A DNA stretch of 64,000 nucleotides from an uncultured delta proteobacterium (GTDB lineage Bacteria; Desulfobacterota; Binatia; Binatales; Binataceae), in contig CAVXXK010000001.1 in assembly GCA_963765675.1 (NCBI GenBank), positions 2,112,001 through 2,176,000 of the forward strand, written 5' to 3'. Below, one piece after another: positions 4,263-55,278 of this stretch. Position 1 is the first letter of the stretch, and each line of letters begins with the position of its first letter. The notes below the pieces were generated by a model that searched no databases, was not told the origin of the DNA, and was given only the letters and a program-made list of their open reading frames with translations. The position numbers and the translations under genes were made by a program.

Positions 4263-4781
4263 GTCATCCTGAGCGGAGGCCGTTGCGGCCGGAGTCGAAG
4301 GATCCCGGGACGACCGTGCGAAGTATCATGATCGCCTGCTCTGACCTTGGGACGCCGATCACCATCGCGCCGTTTTCATTCGCTGGCGAGATCGCGCCAG
4401 GCGGGATTGTCCTTTTCGATCAACGCAATCTTTTTCGCGCGCACCCATCCCTTGAGTTGTTTCTCTCTCGCGATCGCATCCGCGGCGCGATCGTATTGCT
4501 CGAAGTAAACCAGGCGCGTGACATTGTAACGTGCGGTGAAACCCGCGCTCGCTTTCTCCCGATGCTCTGCGATGCGCCGCTCAAGGTCGTTTGTCACGCC
4601 AACGTAGATCACGCGCGAGGGGCTCGCGACGATGTACACGGAAAAAGTGCGCATCGGCATGATCCTCGCGTGTCGCGCGGCGATCAGCAAGCGCCGGGGC
4701 CTTCAGGAGGAGTCACGATGCTGTGCATGGACGCCTCGGGATCCTTCGACTCCGGTCGCAACGGCCTCCGCTCAGGATGAC
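4263..4781. mobile_element. GIY-YIG nuclease gene bracketed by 45-bp inverted repeats (REPtron-like cassette)
   Basis: 4263-4307 GTCATCCTGAGCGGAGGCCGTTGCGGCCGGAGTCGAAGGATCCCG matches the reverse complement of 4737-4781 at 44 of 45 positions. Confidence 0.75.
4376..4660 (-). CDS. Small GIY-YIG family endonuclease
   Basis: SVYIVAS..RVIYVGVTNDLERRIAEH, FTARYNVTRLVYFE, AIAREKQLKGW.RAKKIALIE..NP.WRDL. Confidence 0.92.
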   Translation of the reverse strand: MPMRTFSVYIVASPSRVIYVGVTNDLERRIAEHREKASAGFTARYNVTRLVYFEQYDRAADAIAREKQLKGWVRAKKIALIEKDNPAWRDLASE

Positions 4782-38010: not shown

Positions 38011-38100
38011 AACTGCTCCTTCGAGAAGCCGGGCGTTGAAATCATGCGCGGCGGAAGATCGGGGATCGCGCGCAAAGCTGAACGCGCGATCCCCGCGAAA

Positions 38101-39429
38101 TCACGGCGCGGCTTTCACCATCGACTGGGTGGTGAAGAAGTCGCGGTCCACCGCGCCCATGTTGATGTACCAGCATTCGCGCTCGGGCGTGCTCAGGCCC
38201 GGCAGGTAGCACATGGTCGCGAAACCGCTTTGCACGTCGGTCGAGACGGCGCCGACCTCGAACTCGCGCTTGAACGGATAGATCGCGACGCGCGCGTCAG
38301 GAACCGGACGATCGCGATAGGTCATCCACCAGATGTGGTTGTACCAGAGCTGTCCTTTCTGATCGTATTCGTCGATGTACGGTTCGAACCACGCTTCCGA
38401 GTCCATGTAGACGAGCGTCTTCGATTGCAGCGCGCCGGCGATCCGGTCCCGCCGCGGAGTCGCTTCGACCACGTAGATGTGGCGCATCTCCCACGCTTCG
38501 GGACACGCGCTCGCGCCTGCGTCGGTCGAGCATCGGATCTCTGGGGCATGCTCGGCATGCACGACGCCGAGCATCTCGCGGTCGCCCAGGAAGCGGTAGT
38601 TGTATTCCTCGGTCTTGGCGTTGAAGCCCGAGTAGTGATCGGGATTCCATGCGGTCGGACCGCTGGCGGTGCTCATGATCGATTCGTTGTCGCGGCGCAC
38701 GCGGCGTGAGCCTGGAGTCCACGACCAATCGTCGTCGCCGCGATTAGGATCGGCGTAGCGATAGCGGATGAACCCGTCGCCGCGATCAGTCGCCGGCGCC
38801 ATCACCGGGTAGAGTCCGAACAGCCACAGCCGCCCGGTCGCCTTGAAGTCGGGATCGGTTGGCATCGGCTCGACCTCGACGCGGCCAACCAAATCGTAAC
38901 CGGCGTAATGGCCAATCTGGTAATACTGGATCGGCGAAAAAGATTTGTTGTGTCCGCCGTAAACGCTGTCGCAATCGTAGAAACGCAGATCGTAGTCGTC
39001 GGTCAGAAGCGGGCGGAACACGTTGTTCCACATAATCTTTGTCGCCACGTACGGATCATTCGGATCGATCAGCGGAAACGGCTGCCCCGCCACGTATCCG
39101 ACCAGCGAGCGATTGTCGTGGCTCAGCCTGACCTGCGATGAGTACTTTTCGGTCGCGTCTTTGTAGGGCGGCGGCCAATCGATCCGGTCGCCCGGAATGA
39201 TCTTCATCGACATCCCGTTTTGCACTTTGTAATAGACCCCGGGCGAGACCAGGTCTTTTACTTTCGCGGCATTGTCGGTCGTGATCACGTCACCTGGCTT
39301 CACTTGCGCAACCGCGTTCGTAGACGCGGCGAGCATGGTGAGCACCGCGATCGCGGCGATCGTTGCAAATCCAGCGGTGGCGCGCAGAAGCTGCGCGAGC
39401 ATTCGTCTCCCTGCATATGCAAGGCGCAT
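38101..39429 (-). CDS. DUF1329-family periplasmic/outer-membrane-associated protein
   Basis: VKPGDVIT..NA.KV, YVAGQPFP.IDP.DP...KIMWN, RRVRR, WEMRHIYVVE, YDQKGQLW; GGAGG RBS. Confidence 0.82.
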   Translation of the reverse strand: MRLAYAGRRMLAQLLRATAGFATIAAIAVLTMLAASTNAVAQVKPGDVITTDNAAKVKDLVSPGVYYKVQNGMSMKIIPGDRIDWPPPYKDATEKYSSQVRLSHDNRSLVGYVAGQPFPLIDPNDPYVATKIMWNNVFRPLLTDDYDLRFYDCDSVYGGHNKSFSPIQYYQIGHYAGYDLVGRVEVEPMPTDPDFKATGRLWLFGLYPVMAPATDRGDGFIRYRYADPNRGDDDWSWTPGSRRVRRDNESIMSTASGPTAWNPDHYSGFNAKTEEYNYRFLGDREMLGVVHAEHAPEIRCSTDAGASACPEAWEMRHIYVVEATPRRDRIAGALQSKTLVYMDSEAWFEPYIDEYDQKGQLWYNHIWWMTYRDRPVPDARVAIYPFKREFEVGAVSTDVQSGFATMCYLPGLSTPERECWYINMGAVDRDFFTTQSMVKAAP

Positions 39430-41450: not shown

Positions 41451-42086
41451 ATGATCGATCTCGTTATATTCGACGCCGACGGCGTCCTGTTCGATTCCGA
41501 CGCGTCGAATGTCGCCTACTACAATGCGATCTATGCGCAGATGGACGAGCCGCCGCTCGACGCTGACGAGGCGGCCAAGGCGATCTCCTACGCGACCGAG
41601 CAGGTCTTCGCGCTGCGCACGCGCGGCGACGAAGCCAAGCTCCGCAGGATGAAGGAGATCGCGCGGACGCTGGATTCGGCGCCGTTCCTGAAGCTGCTCC
41701 GTCCGCCGTTCGAGCTCCGTCCGTTCATGCTCGAGCTGCGCCGCCGCTTCCGGCTGGGGCTTGCGACCAATCGCTCGGGCACGGTTCCGGCGCTGGTCGA
41801 GCATCTTGACCTGGCTGATCTCTTCGACGCGATCGCCTGCGCTCGCGACCGCGTGCGGCCCAAACCTGCACCCGACATCCTGAACCTGTGCATCGAACGC
41901 GCAGGAGTGCCGCGCGAGCGCGCGATATACGTCGGCGACAGCCCGATCGATCGCGTCGCGGCGCTGGAGGCGGGGGTGCATTTCATCGCGGTAGGACCGC
42001 GCGTCGAGCACGACCGCCGCATCGCAAGCATCGCGGACCTGCCCTCTGCACTCGATCGTATGTTGGTCAAGCTGACTGCGCCCTGA
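41451..42086 (+). CDS. HAD-superfamily hydrolase (phosphoglycolate phosphatase-like)
   Basis: FDADGVLFDS, KPAPD, YVGDSPID. Confidence 0.9.
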   Translation: MIDLVIFDADGVLFDSDASNVAYYNAIYAQMDEPPLDADEAAKAISYATEQVFALRTRGDEAKLRRMKEIARTLDSAPFLKLLRPPFELRPFMLELRRRFRLGLATNRSGTVPALVEHLDLADLFDAIACARDRVRPKPAPDILNLCIERAGVPRERAIYVGDSPIDRVAALEAGVHFIAVGPRVEHDRRIASIADLPSALDRMLVKLTAP

Positions 42087-42139
42087 GCGCGCGCAACTCA
42101 TCGGTGCGCCCATAGGAAGGGTCTGCTCTTGCGGCTGGC

Positions 42140-42331
42140 GAGATTCCTCGCGACATCTGCCCCGCAACATGAAGCACACGAAGCTATACGCGCTGTCTGA
42201 TCGCGCTCGGAGTGACACCGTTCTCCGAATTCTGTGCGACTTCCCGAAGTTGTTGTCATTCCGAGCGCGAATACACAACGCGTGTCGCGTCATGCGTAGC
42301 GCGACGAGTGACGAGCAGCGCGAAAAATCTC
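42140..42331. repeat. Divergent doublet of 77-nt GTCAT-family units with 49-nt internal inserts
   Basis: Unit 42140-42216 (minus) and unit 42255-42331 (plus): GTCAYTCCGAGCGCG-N49-CGCGARRAATCTC. Confidence 0.85.
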
Positions 42332-42363
42332 GCCCTCGGCACGGGCACACGCTTTGGTGATGC

Positions 42364-43803
42364 TCACGCCGCGAGCTTCGAGGTGGCGCCTTCGACGACC
42401 GTTCCCGCGAAGAAATCCGGATTCGCTGCCAGATGCATCCGTGCGGGGTAGGTGAAGACGAAATCGCGATAGTCGGCGTCGGTCAGGATTCCCTTGTCCA
42501 CCAATTGATGGCTTTCGAGCAGAACGCTCGCGATATCGGGAACGTCCCAATGCCCGATATCGGAGCTGAAGATCGGTTGCAGGCGCGTGCGCTTGGGATT
42601 GGCGCGCGCGTCGAGCGCGCGGAACACGCTCGGATCGTCGGCCTCGCATCCGAAGAAAAATTTGCCGAACATCCGAGCGAAGTCCGCCTCGTCGCGAACT
42701 CCCGTCGCCGCCCATTCGTCGCGATCGGCGGCGCGATCATGGCGCGCGATACCTTCGTCGTACGCGCGGCTCATCCCGGCCGCGGTCGAAGCGTCAACGA
42801 AAGCCGCTCCGCCATATTCGCGCAGAAGGCCGTGCAGCTTTGGCCGATCCAGCAGTGCGGGGTCATAATTCTTGAGCCCTTCGAGATTGCGCTTTTCCCA
42901 ATGCTCTTCGAGCGAGTGCAGCAAATCGACCGCCCATCCCGCTCCGCATTCCAGGAATCCAAACGCCAGATCAGGAAAACGCGCGGGAACTCCGCCGAAG
43001 ATAAGCGAGCGGCACAGTTCGCCCTGCTGATACGAATGGCCCCCGATATGATTGAACATGTAGTTCGACGGTGAGCGGCGCCCGAGCGGCAGGTAGCGCA
43101 GTCCTACGCCGCCGTGAGAAGTGACGGCGATGCGCAGCTCGGTGAATTTGCGCCACACCGGATCGTAGTCGTGGAAGCTGTCGAGTCCGTAGTTGTCGAA
43201 GTACGCGGCGTTCGGAAACGCGTCGGGCGCCTTTTCATCCAGGACGGGAATCGGGCGCGCGACTCCGGGCGGAATCATCGCGACCTTGAGCCCGAGCCGC
43301 GACGCATACTCCAACTCCGCAATCGCCTCGGCGGGCGTATGCATCGGAATCGCGGCGGCGGGCACCAGCCGATCGCGGTAGGCGCCGCAGATCTCCGCGT
43401 TCATCGTGTTGAGCGCGCGGCATGCCGCCCGCCGCACGTCGGCGTCGTGGATCGTCGGGAGCGCCAGCCCAAGCGTCGGGTACATCACGGCGAAATCGAT
43501 TCCGATTTCTTCGAGCCGGTCATGCAGCAGCCGCGGCGCCATCACGGTCGCGAGGTCGTAAGCGTTGTTGCCGATTCCCCACCATGCGCCGCGCATGTCG
43601 CCCGAGTCGCGACTCCCGCGCGAACCGGTAGGATGCTCGCGCAGCTCGGCGCGATAGCGATCCGCCATCTGCGCACCGCCGATTTTGGTCAGGTAATGAT
43701 GAAACAATGGCTGCGGCTCGATCAGATGTCCGTCCGCGTCGATTACCGGATGGTCGAGTTTCGCCCGCAGCGCTTTTACGCTTCGAGATTTGTCCGATTC
43801 CAT
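42364..43803 (-). CDS. Amidohydrolase family protein
   Basis: VIDADGH, IDFAVMYPT, GFLECG, FSSDIGHWD. Confidence 0.88.
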   Translation of the reverse strand: MESDKSRSVKALRAKLDHPVIDADGHLIEPQPLFHHYLTKIGGAQMADRYRAELREHPTGSRGSRDSGDMRGAWWGIGNNAYDLATVMAPRLLHDRLEEIGIDFAVMYPTLGLALPTIHDADVRRAACRALNTMNAEICGAYRDRLVPAAAIPMHTPAEAIAELEYASRLGLKVAMIPPGVARPIPVLDEKAPDAFPNAAYFDNYGLDSFHDYDPVWRKFTELRIAVTSHGGVGLRYLPLGRRSPSNYMFNHIGGHSYQQGELCRSLIFGGVPARFPDLAFGFLECGAGWAVDLLHSLEEHWEKRNLEGLKNYDPALLDRPKLHGLLREYGGAAFVDASTAAGMSRAYDEGIARHDRAADRDEWAATGVRDEADFARMFGKFFFGCEADDPSVFRALDARANPKRTRLQPIFSSDIGHWDVPDIASVLLESHQLVDKGILTDADYRDFVFTYPARMHLAANPDFFAGTVVEGATSKLAA

Positions 43804-43910
43804 GGGCCGCACACTCCTGAGGACCGGCGACAGAGCCCCTCGCCGCAATGAGCGACCGCTAGCGCGCGCTATCTCGCGCTGTCAAGGGCGAGTCTTGCGC
43901 CCAGAGATAC

Positions 43911-52121: not shown

Positions 52122-52489
52122 CGTCATTTCGACCGAAGGGAGAAATCCCCAGCGTCCATGCTTCACACCAACACCACCTGCAGAGGCCCTTCGTCCGGGA
52201 TTCCTCGCGCGGCAGCCACGCGCGGGAATGACAGACCACCGCACGAGTCTTCGTAGGGGCGGCTCGGAGCCGCCCGTCTTTCGCGCAGCCTGTCGCTACT
52301 CGCCAACTTTCATCTCGCGTGGTGGTCCATCGGACCCGTGAGGGTCTGAGGCGCAGGCGAAGGATCTCCGCGAAGCGATTGGCGCGGAGCGCATTGCGAT
52401 GCTGAAACGATCGGGCGGTTGCTGGTGATACGGAATATCGTCGCTGCACCCCCTCCTTTAATCCTCCCCCGTTAAGGAACGGGGGAGGA
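52122..52489. repeat. Mosaic of GTCAT-type, GTAG-type and CCTCCCCC-type palindromic repeats
   Basis: CGTCATTTCGACCGAAGGGAGAAATCCC (52122), GGGATTCCTCGCG..GGAATGAC (52197-52232), TTCGTAGGGGCGG..CCGCCCGT (52250), 12-bp hairpin 52462-52489. Confidence 0.75.
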
Positions 52490-52490
52490 A

Positions 52491-53587
52491 TCAGGCGGGA
52501 TGGAGGTTGGCGCCGATTTGCGCGAGGTCGGCGAGCGTGCGGGGTTCGTGGTCGAGCTCGGGCGAGAGCATCAGGGCGGCCCCGGCGGGCATCGCGGCGC
52601 GCAGAGTCTCGAACGAGATCGATTCGCGCTCTTTGAGAGCGGCGTAGTCATCGAGATTGCGTTTGAGCTTGCGCCTTAATGCAGCGGGGATTTTCGCGTG
52701 GCTGATTTCGGCCGCGTCGGGAAGATCAGCCATCGCGCGGTTCACGATCACTGCGCGCACCCGCAGATCGGCGCGTCCGAGGGCGGCGATAAACTCGCCC
52801 GCTTGCGCGATCCGCCCGGCCTCCGCAGTCGTCACGACGATCACCGCGGTGCTGTCCGCGTGCAGCATCGCGCGGGCGCGTTTTGCGCGCTCGGCGAAAC
52901 CTTCGTACATGCCCTCGAAGTTCCGGACGAACGCCTGCACGTCGCCGAGCAGCTTGAGTCCCGTCACGCGATCGAACGCCGACAGGACCGCCCGCGCCGC
53001 AAGGTCCACCATCCCAGTCGGCGAAGCGACCTTGTCGCGTGCCGAGCAGGGTGACCGCGCGCGAGCTGAGCAGCTCCAGGAGCCGCCGCGGAGCGTCGAG
53101 GAAGTCGAGCGCCTCGGCGGCGGGGGGAGTGTCGAGCACGATAAAATCAGTAGTGGGTTCGGCGGCCAGCTCCAGTAATTTCTCCATCGCCATGTAATCG
53201 GCGACGCCGGCGAAGGCGCTCGCGAGGTTTGCATAAATCCGCCCCGCGATAATCGCTTCGGCCGCGGCGGGCGACGCGGCGTAGCGGCGAACGATCGCGT
53301 CGAAAGTCGCCCGCGGATCGAGGCGCAGCGCGCGCAGCCGCCCGCGCGGCACCTGCACGAGCAGCGTGAGCGACGGAATCGAGATCAACCTCGCGCGGCT
53401 CCGACGCGCCGGCGTCGAGGCCGAGCGCGTCGAGCAGCCGCGGGGCAGGATCGACCGTCATCACGTCGACCGCGCGCCCGCTGCATGCGCTGTCGATCGC
53501 GAGCGCGGCGCTGATCGTGGTTTTGCCGACGCCGCCGGGACCGAGGCAGATCGCGAGCTTGCATCCTGCAAGATCGAGCCGGTTCAT
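52491..53587 (-). pseudogene. ArsA/Get3-like ATPase, second of a tandem pair; at least two frameshifts
   Basis: GPGGVGKTT, TVDPAPRL, then DTPPAAEALDFLDAP and AVIVNR in successive frames. Confidence 0.8.
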
Positions 53588-54473
53588 CGCGCGCGGCATC
53601 TCCGCCGCGAGGACCGCTCCGAGCTCCGCGATTTCCGGGCGTCCCATCGCGGGCCGATAGAGCATCTCGAGCTCGATCATCGGCACTCCAGCGCGGATAA
53701 ATTCCTTGCGCGCACGGCCGGCGGCGGTGCGTTCGCGCTCGCGACGCTGCGCCAGCGCGAAGTGCGCTCCGAGCTCCGCGATCGCGTGCATGTCCGCCTT
53801 GCTGAAAAGTGGCGCGGGCGTGCGATTCATGATCGCGGCGACCGTCGCGATTCCAAGATGCTCCCGCAGCGCGGCCGAGAGCTCCAGCGCCTCGCGGATC
53901 GCGAGCTCCTCGGGCGTTACGGTCAGCACGACGCCGAAGCGCCCGCGATCGACGAGAAAGCGTCTCGACGCTGTGCGCGATTCGATTAAGCGAGCCGACC
54001 GGCGCGATTCCTTTCACCCCGCGTGCGACCGCGAGAAGCTCGAGCGCGCTGCCCGACGCGGGCCCATCGACGACGACGTAGCGATCCTCCAGCGCGGCGT
54101 CGCCCGCCATGATCCGCAGCCGCTCGAGCATCAGGAAGGCTTCGAGGCCCGGCAGCGCGGCGGTGACGTAGCCGAAGGTTCTGCTCTTGAGCATCCGGCG
54201 CGAGATCGCGGCGACCGGCACGATCCGGCGCATGAACGCCTCGAGCTCGGCATGAGGGTTAAGCGCCATGACTTCGAGCGTCGCGCTCGCTCTGACAGGA
54301 GCGCCCGCCGACATCGGCGCGCCGAGCAGCATCGCGGCCGCGCTCATCCGCGGATCGAGGTCGGCGAGAATGGTAGGGCGCTCGAGCGACAGCGAATGGG
54401 CCAGCGCCGCGGCGACCGTGCTCTTGCCGGTGCCGCCCTTTCCGGTTACGAAGAGAAGCCGCGCGAGCGCCAT
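53584..54473 (-). pseudogene. ArsA/Get3-like ATPase, first of a tandem pair; frameshift near 53960
   Basis: VTGKGGTGKST, PGLE, VDGPASG, then VTPEELAIRE..MNR in another frame. Confidence 0.8.
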
Positions 54474-54562
54474 CGCCTTGAATCTATGGAGCGCGCGCCG
54501 CGCAGTAAACCGCAAGCCAAGTGGTGGGCCGGATTGAGCGCATGGCTCTCACGCGAGGGGCG

Positions 54563-54993
54563 TGTCCTGAGCAACGCCGAAGGAAATCCCGTGCTCGGCC
54601 ATCGGCCTTTACGCGGCTCGCGGGCGGGTGCATGAACGCTCCGGGATTTCTCGCCTACGGCTCGAAATGACGGTAGGCGGTTCGGCGGAAGCTACGATAC
54701 TGATACGCCTAGCCCACGCACGTCATTTCGACCCCTTCGACGCTGCTCAGGGCAGGCTCCGAGAGAAATCCCGAGGCGGCCATGCTCGGAGTTCACGCCT
54801 CATGCGGCGCCCTCGCGTCCCGGGATTTCTCGCGGGATCTGCCGCGCGACACGAAGCAGACGAAGCGATACAGGTTGTCTGATCGCGCTCGGAATGACAC
54901 AAAGGCAGGAAAGATTGTCATTCCGAGCGCGTATCGGCAGTGCAGATGGGAACGTGCGCACCACTTGGAGTGGCGGAAATCGCGAGGAATCTC
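54563..54993. repeat. Alternating-orientation cluster of five GTCAT-family units, the last two with 49-nt inserts
   Basis: Units at about 54563 (+, degenerate), 54643-54671 (-), 54721-54772 (+), 54822-54898 (-), 54917-54993 (+). Confidence 0.82.
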
Positions 54994-55050
54994 GCCCTCA
55001 CGCGCTGGCACGCACTCACGAGCAATTATGCAAAGCTCTCCACGCGCGGT

Positions 55051-55278
55051 ATGAACGATTCGACGCCCAGGCTCGGCAGTATCCTGATTGCGATTCCGCC
55101 CGCGGAGATCGTGCTGTTCAAGTCGATCCTCGAGGCGTACGACAACCTGGCGACGCTGCGGACTGAAGATCCCGTGCGGCACTACCTGCGGATTACCTTT
55201 GGCGAGGATCAACGCGCCGACGTCGAGCAGGTGCTCGACTCGCTCACCGCGCAATTCGGGATTCGCCGCCTCGACTGA
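55051..55278 (+). CDS. DUF4911-like small protein
   Basis: IVLFKSILEAYDNLATLRTED motif. Confidence 0.7.
   Translation: MNDSTPRLGSILIAIPPAEIVLFKSILEAYDNLATLRTEDPVRHYLRITFGEDQRADVEQVLDSLTAQFGIRRLD

Follow-up and report, generated by a model that had tools for sequence, protein, structure and literature searches.

Paired GTC-tagged hairpin units with a 49-nt loop-position core in a Binataceae genome: probable variants of Ssn-type nuclease sites

Two intergenic doublets in the window

The window, that is, the whole 64-kb stretch of DNA analysed here, belongs to a genome of 4.52 Mb on 16 contigs (G000). Two intergenic loci in the window each carry a pair of 75-nt repeat units (Table 1). A search with the pattern GTCAYTCCGAGCGCG-N-CGCGARRAATC gave exactly four matches in the window, and none was obtained in any of 100 dinucleotide shuffles; the four units are a real, non-random feature. 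As the preliminary description had it, the insert between the conserved arms was exactly 49 nt in every unit, and both loci were divergent doublets with the GTCAT ends facing inward, separated by spacers of 38 nt and 18 nt. Recomputing the ungapped core identities reproduced the earlier counts exactly, with 39/49 between the two minus-strand cores, 24/49 between the two plus-strand cores and 24/49 within doublet 1; the internal pair of doublet 2 shared 20/49. Both doublets were somewhat decayed copies with altered arms.

Doublet 1 forms part of a composite element, in the order outer arm, unit (-), spacer, unit (+), outer arm, which fills the gap between two convergent genes, a HAD hydrolase gene (41451-42086, +) and an amidohydrolase gene (42364-43848, -). 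Doublet 2 lies in a block of nested repeats. A conserved open frame starts with an ATG at 55051 (+), right behind this block, and homology to relatives restarts exactly there. Doublet 2 therefore occupies a divergent promoter region, with this frame on one side and an ArsA-like gene (53385-54515, -) on the other, and does not follow the ends of genes.

Table 1. Hairpin units, composite structures and the nuclease gene located in the window
Feature	Position	Strand	Remarks
GTC-tagged hairpin, left of GIY-YIG gene	4263..4305	+	43 nt; stem ATCCT; tag outward
Small single-domain GIY-YIG gene, Ssn-like	4376..4654	-	92 aa; PF01541, E 1.7e-15
Inverted copy of the 43-nt ATCCT hairpin, right of GIY-YIG gene	4739..4781	-	tag outward
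Composite element 1	42098..42355	.	imperfect palindrome of ~260 nt; boundaries approximate
Long-loop hairpin unit, doublet 1 left	42142..42216	-	GTC tag, 5' half-stem, 49-nt core, 3' half-stem and tail C; core of subfamily A; 5' arm change T5>C
Spacer between inward tags, doublet 1	42217..42254	.	38 nt; family norm 18 nt
Long-loop hairpin unit, doublet 1 right	42255..42329	+	core of singleton type; 3' arm GG>AA, two stem pairs broken
Nested-repeat block including doublet 2	54520..55050	.	531 nt
GTC-tagged hairpin, other class	54730..54780	+	stem ATTTC; loop holds a ~24-nt module (CCTTCGAC..GCTCAGGGCAGGCTC)
Long-loop hairpin unit, doublet 2 left	54824..54898	-	core of subfamily A; 3' arm G>A
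Spacer, doublet 2	54899..54916	.	canonical 18 nt
Long-loop hairpin unit, doublet 2 right	54917..54991	+	core of subfamily B

Unit anatomy and the composite element

The full pattern was found genome-wide in 63 units, of which 44 were 75 nt long, seven 74 nt, five 76 nt, two 73 nt and two 77 nt (60/63 within 73-77 nt); the outliers measured 27, 50 and 91 nt, one each. Because the full pattern fixes the arms, the census was repeated with detection by two inward-facing 8-nt tags only. This arm-independent census yielded 37 centres in G000, i.e. 74 units in head-to-head doublets. The seven bases of the 5' arm outside the detection showed no mismatch in 61/74 units, and the same number was obtained for the 16-nt 3' arm. 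Unit lengths (n=72) were 75 nt in 49 units, 74 nt in 10, 76 nt in five, 73 nt in three and 77 nt in two, so that 69/72 fell within 73-77 nt, with single units of 56, 91 and 101 nt. Among 48 units of 75 nt, mean pairwise identity reached 0.96 in the 5' arm and 0.985 in the 3' arm, against 0.499 in the core. Neither of the refuting outcomes named at the outset was seen genome-wide: insert lengths were narrowly and not broadly distributed, and arms (96-98% identity) had diverged less than cores (50%). Both the contrast between nearly invariant arms and variable core, first noted on four units, and the narrow length distribution are real. The 91-nt outlier (C1:1580602-1580692) was found to contain a 16-nt tandem duplication in its core (GCAGATCGTCTCGCGC twice).

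The arms read TGTC-ATTCC-GA-GCG ... CGC-GA-GGAAT-C, comprising the tag, the stem halves and a tail C. The stem formed by ATTCC-GA-GCG and CGC-GA-GGAAT consists of five pairs, a tandem G.A mismatch and three pairs. In 44 aligned units, GTC and C75 were invariant, and the only helices kept were those of positions 4-8 with 70-74 and 11-13 with 65-67; the former paired in 95-100% of the units, and the tandem G.A lay at positions 9-10 and 68-69. In the listed spacers of head-to-head pairs, GTCATTCC follows a T, which gives the tag its TGTC form. At pair 13-65, a compensatory C-G was observed in a G000 unit (C6:83756) and in L148:802-875, one of the public loci described below; in G000, this pair was broken in 6/71 units versus one compensatory case.

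For comparison, the Neisseria NTS was reported as CGTCATTCCCGCGMAVGCGGGAATCYRG by Chenal 2025 (Nat Commun, PMC11893778). According to the available part of that report, the nuclease SsnA is a monomeric, single-domain GIY-YIG protein of 94 aa that binds NTS solely as ssDNA, not as duplex, and does not bind RNA; the three bases preceding the palindrome were required for cutting and the C behind it for binding, and cleavage took place a few bases upstream of the tag (PMC11893778). The loop sequence was described as non-essential, and loop-less, split (two oligonucleotides) or loop-extended hairpins were still cut; the ssn gene was typically flanked on both sides by its repeat (PMC11893778). In G000, arms identical to those of the long units close a 3-nt loop at C14:142337. 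Since the arms also close such a short loop, and since the arm pairings are the only helices kept, the arms are read as the two halves of one Ssn-type hairpin, with 49 nt at the loop position. The 49-nt core (51 nt unpaired) thus stands where ordinary members carry a loop of 3-7 nt.

All 25 exact doublets were oriented (-,+), their tags facing each other, and the spacer was 18 nt in 19 cases. When copies were aligned with their flanks, an imperfect palindrome of ~270 nt was obtained, in the order outer arm, 3' arm, core, 5' arm, 18-nt spacer, 5' arm, core, 3' arm, outer arm. The spacer was 18 nt in 27/37 elements, and 33 of 46 measurable outer arms had 29-30 nt. Spacer and outer arm were about as length-stable as the core, so indels are scarce throughout the element and not in the core alone. 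Among 44 units, the cores formed three clusters (18, 11 and 7 units) and left 8 singletons, and the two cores of a doublet belonged to different subfamilies. That the cores of a doublet might pair with each other was considered and rejected: core likeness within doublets was 22/49 (10 doublets with both units of 75 nt), versus 25/49 for all pairs, and no co-evolution was seen. Whole doublets folded better than their shuffles, with z of -3.1 and -2.4. As ssDNA, a whole doublet favoured a long inter-unit hairpin, in which like arms pair (5' with 5', 3' with 3') and the tag is paired, and hence buried.

Distribution among relatives, core length and core sequence

The long-loop pattern was detected in 8/10 other genomes of the genus and in 0/30 genomes from 30 other genera. 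In seven congeners, 103 units were counted by hand from listed coordinates within a search range of 54-84 nt, 22 of them coming from a single genome (G010, flagged as unpublished); 65 units were 75 nt long, 23 were 76 nt, eight were 74 nt, two were 73 nt, two were 77 nt, one was 71 nt and two were 59 nt. A wider scan, with one genome per species, exact arms and a gap of 35-65 nt, gave 107 units at the loci listed, at least 80 in number. Among these listed loci, 90 units measured 73-77 nt and all came from the same lineage (Binataceae / 'delta proteobacterium' MAGs); the other 17, of 62-68 nt, were from an uncultured bacterium, a Chloroflexi MAG and an Acidobacteria MAG. The 62-68-nt units formed tail-to-tail dimers and showed small indels between related copies.

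At the first window site, the gap between the HAD hydrolase and amidohydrolase genes was empty (18-36 nt) in three relatives (G001, G002 and G008), whereas G000 and G004 carry the element there. The G004 copy had two cores of 49 nt and a spacer of 97 nt (hand counts), and its cores, judged by eye, were strongly diverged from those of G000. At the second site, the 531-nt block around doublet 2 was missing in G001, G003 and G004. Other species carried different GTC-tagged repeats at these spots. No target-site duplication was evident at the two filled-versus-empty sites, where both insertions were mosaics. These comparisons showed an element that is common in one genus and whose presence at a particular intergenic site varies from species to species through gain or loss.

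The constant spacing had been read as a molecular ruler. In its full form, a dimeric or DNA-wrapping protein would need the two arms as binding sites exactly 49 nt apart on duplex DNA, and the fixed length would be the functional feature. The lengths themselves speak for this: they were very narrow within a wide search range (69/72 units of 73-77 nt in G000, 96/103 of 74-76 nt in the congeners), and both G004 cores at the first site were 49 nt by hand count despite their divergence by eye and the 97-nt spacer. Moreover, length deviations were unmatched between the two units of a doublet, so what is conserved is the absolute length. On the other hand, a quarter to a third of the units were off by 1-2 nt, and the same arms occur in units of 27 nt and 59 nt and, in other lineages, of 62-68 nt with indels among related copies, the enclosed loops being ~3 nt (C14:142337), 31 nt (the 59-nt units, in G004) and 36-42 nt (other lineages), respectively. 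The known partner, SsnA, is described as a monomer of ~94 aa that does not bind duplex DNA (available part of PMC11893778). In view of the other loop lengths and of the equally stable spacer and outer arms, a ruler specific to 49 nt is therefore regarded as quite unlikely; of the earlier claim, the narrow length distribution stands and the special role of the 49-nt distance is weakened. Most likely, the constant 49 nt would reflect descent from one loop insertion together with a constraint of the whole element against indels, a low indel rate being a further possible reason. The known properties of Ssn enzymes give no account of the core-length constancy.

Retention of each copy because it benefits the host may also be considered, whether through termination of transcription in both directions, stabilisation of mRNA or modulation of recombination or transformation, the nuclease being incidental. 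The position of doublet 1 in a convergent-gene gap and the folding of the doublets beyond shuffled level agree with such a role, and NTS and SsnA were reported to modulate transformation in Neisseria (PMC11893778). Doublet 2, however, lies between gene starts and not gene ends, T-run terminators were not consistently present, the sites are empty in close relatives, and the arms of the window copies have decayed. A host-level structural function was accordingly assigned a low probability.

The preliminary description had further suggested a processed RNA with constant handles and a guide-like core, for which the constant ends, the variable middle and the tRNA-like size would speak. The cores were found to be mutually homologous (mean identity 0.50), with G33, T39, G57 and C58 fixed in 44 units; judged from the sequences, these fixed positions and the shared ancestry make the cores unlike acquired guides. 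When the inserts were inspected for covarying structure, no helix was found beyond the arm pairing: RNAalifold returned nothing but a 5-bp mini-hairpin in the 3' arm, mutual information within the cores was dominated by subfamily structure and not by Watson-Crick pairs, and the longest conserved helix inside the core had 3-4 pairs, the same as in column-shuffled controls. Folds of single units as DNA varied between copies. Matches of the cores elsewhere in the genome were limited to degenerate family members or stretches of 15-20 nt, and no matches were obtained in phage records with doublet 1 as query or in plasmid records with doublet 2 as query, so that no targets appeared outside the family itself. 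Rfam gave nothing at gathering thresholds, and otherwise chance-level miRNA matches with E above 0.6; ARAGORN reported no tRNA-like genes, and the promoter and terminator scans gave nothing consistent and no promoter-like site. Since the cores are related, have no conserved fold and have no targets in the genome, phage or plasmid records searched, the guide reading fails, and SsnA itself was described as not binding RNA (available part of PMC11893778). A processed small RNA, or another structured non-coding RNA, is very unlikely.

Nuclease partners and comparison with known hairpin systems

Five GIY-YIG matches were found in G000, three of them small proteins of 92, 94 and 94 aa (PF01541, E 5.7e-15 to 1.5e-12). 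All three are single-domain proteins within ~90-100 aa and have no DNA-binding extension. Their best relatives in the PDB are the UPF0213 (cd10456) proteins 1zg2 (E 3.8e-6) and 1ywl (E 1.8e-5), the Ssn family itself being cd10448; NCBIfam gave nothing above cut-off. Each of the three genes is located between inverted GTCAT hairpins, and each has hairpins of another class. Those of the window gene are given in Table 1; at C1:1912826, the gene stands between ATTTC hairpins whose tags point inward, and the one at C6:419628 is bracketed by a 34-nt ATTCC hairpin that recurs in G000 as 33 nearly identical copies. No small GIY-YIG gene of G000 stands beside a 75-nt unit, the nearest being 24.7 kb off.

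The window gene had earlier been named as the obvious candidate partner of the long-loop units. Its flanking hairpins are of another kind (ATCCT, 43 nt); its product therefore probably serves these and is unlikely to be the cognate of the long-loop units. The enzyme class, by contrast, held up: besides the bracketing of 3/3 genes in G000, two of the 80 public loci listed had an Ssn-like gene within 100 nt of long-loop units. At L148, two units of 74 and 75 nt with outward tags enclose the gene (958-1245); at L141, 13 nt separate the start codon of the gene from the tag of a unit of 62 nt. The earlier idea that the arms are protein-recognition elements is supported. The nucleases of L148 and L141 share 48-61% identity with the G000 paralogs and 52% with one another; a 'cognate' nuclease clade for long-loop units was rejected, no clade being distinct at 48-61% identity. 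Over 11 genomes of the genus, several of them fragmented assemblies, the number of units and the number of Ssn-like genes showed no clear relation; for instance, G006 had 12 units with no Ssn-like gene found at 86% completeness, and G008 had no units and three genes.

Several observations were made on neighbouring elements. In G004, an Ssn-like gene accompanied by short ATCCT hairpins of its own (locus L024, contig C71, gene 38069-38341) lies inside apparent outer arms and 3' arms of the composite element, which would be either a gene cassette that landed in the composite element or a gene-bearing form of it. The 34-nt hairpin that flanks the third Ssn-like paralog (C6:419577-419973) reads GTCATTCCCGCGCG-TGGCTGC-CGCGCGAGGAATC; its loop was almost invariant over the 33 occurrences, one of which is near 52199-52232 (-) in the window, and a 38-nt version with one extra CG in the stem occurred 19 times. 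About 360 GTC-tagged hairpins were counted in G000, and every class had its own sharp length.

A module of ~24 nt (CCTTCGGC..GCTCAGGRCAGGCTC) gave 53 matches at no more than one mismatch, some of them probably by chance, including 54742-54767 in the window, C4:113052, C1:481049, C1:1411495 and ~40 more in G000. It was nested in loops or 3' arms of several hairpin classes, among them a 75-nt unit that thereby reaches 101 nt, and in the G004 copy at the HAD site it was present in each of the two 3' arms. Insertion thus seems to recur in the loops of hairpins. A further doublet family, with ~30 copies, was made up of short GTC-tagged hairpins (ATTTC or ATTCC, 25-27 nt) that face inward across a spacer of 49-51 nt (for example C1:504100, C1:1644864 and C3:472832); the ATTTC hairpin of the window (Table 1) is a related unit. 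The spacer ends of this family and the tag-to-gene sequences at C1:1912826-1913134 agreed at 23-26/52 positions without gaps, versus 14.7 for shuffled sequences (maximum 25), and the second-family doublets may conceivably be gene-less derivatives of the element that carries the C1:1912826 gene.

In REP/REPIN elements and the BIMEs of E. coli, the tag is GTAG and the partner is a RAYT, an HUH tyrosine transposase. The elements described here resemble them in having inverted hairpin pairs that can fold into one long hairpin, a bracketed partner gene and a non-autonomous character; they differ in the tag, which is GTC and not GTAG, and in that no RAYT-type gene is linked to 75-nt units. Mobilisation of REP/REPIN elements by a RAYT of the IS200/IS605 type, in place of a GIY-YIG nuclease, would draw on the four Y1_Tnp genes of the genome and the REPIN-like doublets, yet with the GTC tag, with a GTCAT-type tag within 900 nt of 0/4 Y1_Tnp genes, and with CGTC REPs reported without RAYT (available part of PMC3733652), it is extremely improbable.

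We consider it probable that the 75-nt units are GTC-tagged hairpins of the CGTC/TGTC-REP and NTS/SRM superfamily which carry a 49-nt core at the loop position and whose arms are read by an Ssn-type nuclease. By analogy with SsnA, such a nuclease would read in ssDNA the stem, the three preceding bases and the following C, and would cut a few bases upstream of the tag, ignoring the loop sequence. Given the published loop indifference, the arms would be held constant and the core would drift by substitution. In a head-to-head pair, the predicted cuts of both strands fall inside the spacer; for doublet 2, putative SsnA-like cut sites on both strands would lie within 54899-54916. The composite element may then be a non-autonomous repeat, spread or maintained via its nuclease in the manner of REPs with RAYTs, and both the arrangement of the element and its gain and loss between species fit this mechanism. 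Several observations weigh against the reading: the 75-nt units of G000 have no Ssn-like gene beside them, unit numbers do not track gene numbers across the genus, the SRM motif is not enriched, pair 13-65 is broken more often than compensated, the best solved relatives of the nucleases are UPF0213 proteins, and the constant core length does not follow from the enzyme's known properties. The preference of whole ssDNA doublets for the inter-unit hairpin, with its buried tag, likewise counts against it, so that the intra-unit hairpin is only a putative fold in vivo.

A more far-reaching reading, which appears unlikely, is that the units represent a distinct grade of Ssn site, with a naturally split hairpin, a sequence-free and length-constrained core, gating by a fold switch, loops that serve as landing sites and lengths co-adapted within lineages. 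If so, the doublet would switch between a masked long hairpin, in which the tags are paired, and two open, Ssn-competent hairpins, and DNA conformation would gate cutting and hence mobility or local recombination. Hairpin loops would be preferred landing sites that give rise to nested hairpin-in-hairpin mobile elements, and co-adaptation with the nuclease of each lineage would account for core lengths of 49 nt here and 36-42 nt elsewhere.

The Ssn/hairpin system was published only in 2025, and the long-loop units are a natural counterpart of the loop tolerance seen in vitro. Hairpin searches restricted to 20-50 nt miss whole families of this kind, and the fixed core length, the lineage-specific lengths and the nested modules offer handles on whether and how Ssn elements move. 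In G000, the degenerate SRM motif of Chenal gave 13 matches versus 35 for the reversed control, i.e. no enrichment, and missed the 75-nt units. No description of long-loop SRMs was found in the literature searched, a point on which the SRM lists supplementary to Chenal 2025 could bear.

Set against the published NTS (PMC11893778), the arms TGTCATTCC..GCG / CGC..GGAATC show a GTC tag, an ATTCC...GGAAT stem and a tail C as NTS/SRM do, and there are likewise many intergenic copies. Nuclease genes of 92-102 aa lie between inverted copies in both cases, and the loop was irrelevant to the enzyme in vitro (PMC11893778). In contrast to SRMs, described as 20-50 nt long with a motif loop of 0-5 nt in the available part of that report (PMC11893778), the units here leave 51 nt unpaired at a fixed length, have a tandem G.A in the stem and are embedded in a composite palindrome of ~270 nt. 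The stem of the 75-nt units is of the 8-9 bp kind that starts with A-T and is followed by a conserved C, head-to-head dimers prevail (25/25 exact doublets) and both window copies are intergenic, but the short loop of GTC-tagged hairpins is lacking. Because the units fall outside the loop and size definition of SRMs, they are filed as a variant and not as a canonical member.

The CGTC REPs, often TGTC, of Di Nocera, De Gregorio & Rocco 2013 (BMC Genomics, PMC3733652) have stems of 8-9 bp and loops of 4-5 nt, and the available part of that paper knew no partner enzyme for them in 2013. The units here share with them the allowed TGTC, the 8-9 bp stem opening with A-T pairs, the dominance of head-to-head dimers, the frequent heterodimers and the conserved head-to-head spacers (PMC3733652); they depart from them in loop size, loops of 'different length' being mentioned there for few taxa only. 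As in NIMEs (dRS3 and RS; Bentley 2007 PLoS Genet, PMC1797815), constant blocks of ATTCC..GGAAT type alternate with families of variable segments of ~50-150 bp. Unlike NIMEs, in which each dRS3 is a whole 20-bp palindrome and the RS range from 19 to 214 bp (available part of PMC1797815), the constant blocks here are half-hairpins and the segments have one length. The long-loop form is no new kind of system; it is, on the strength of these likenesses, a member of the system published in 2025, with an unusual loop.
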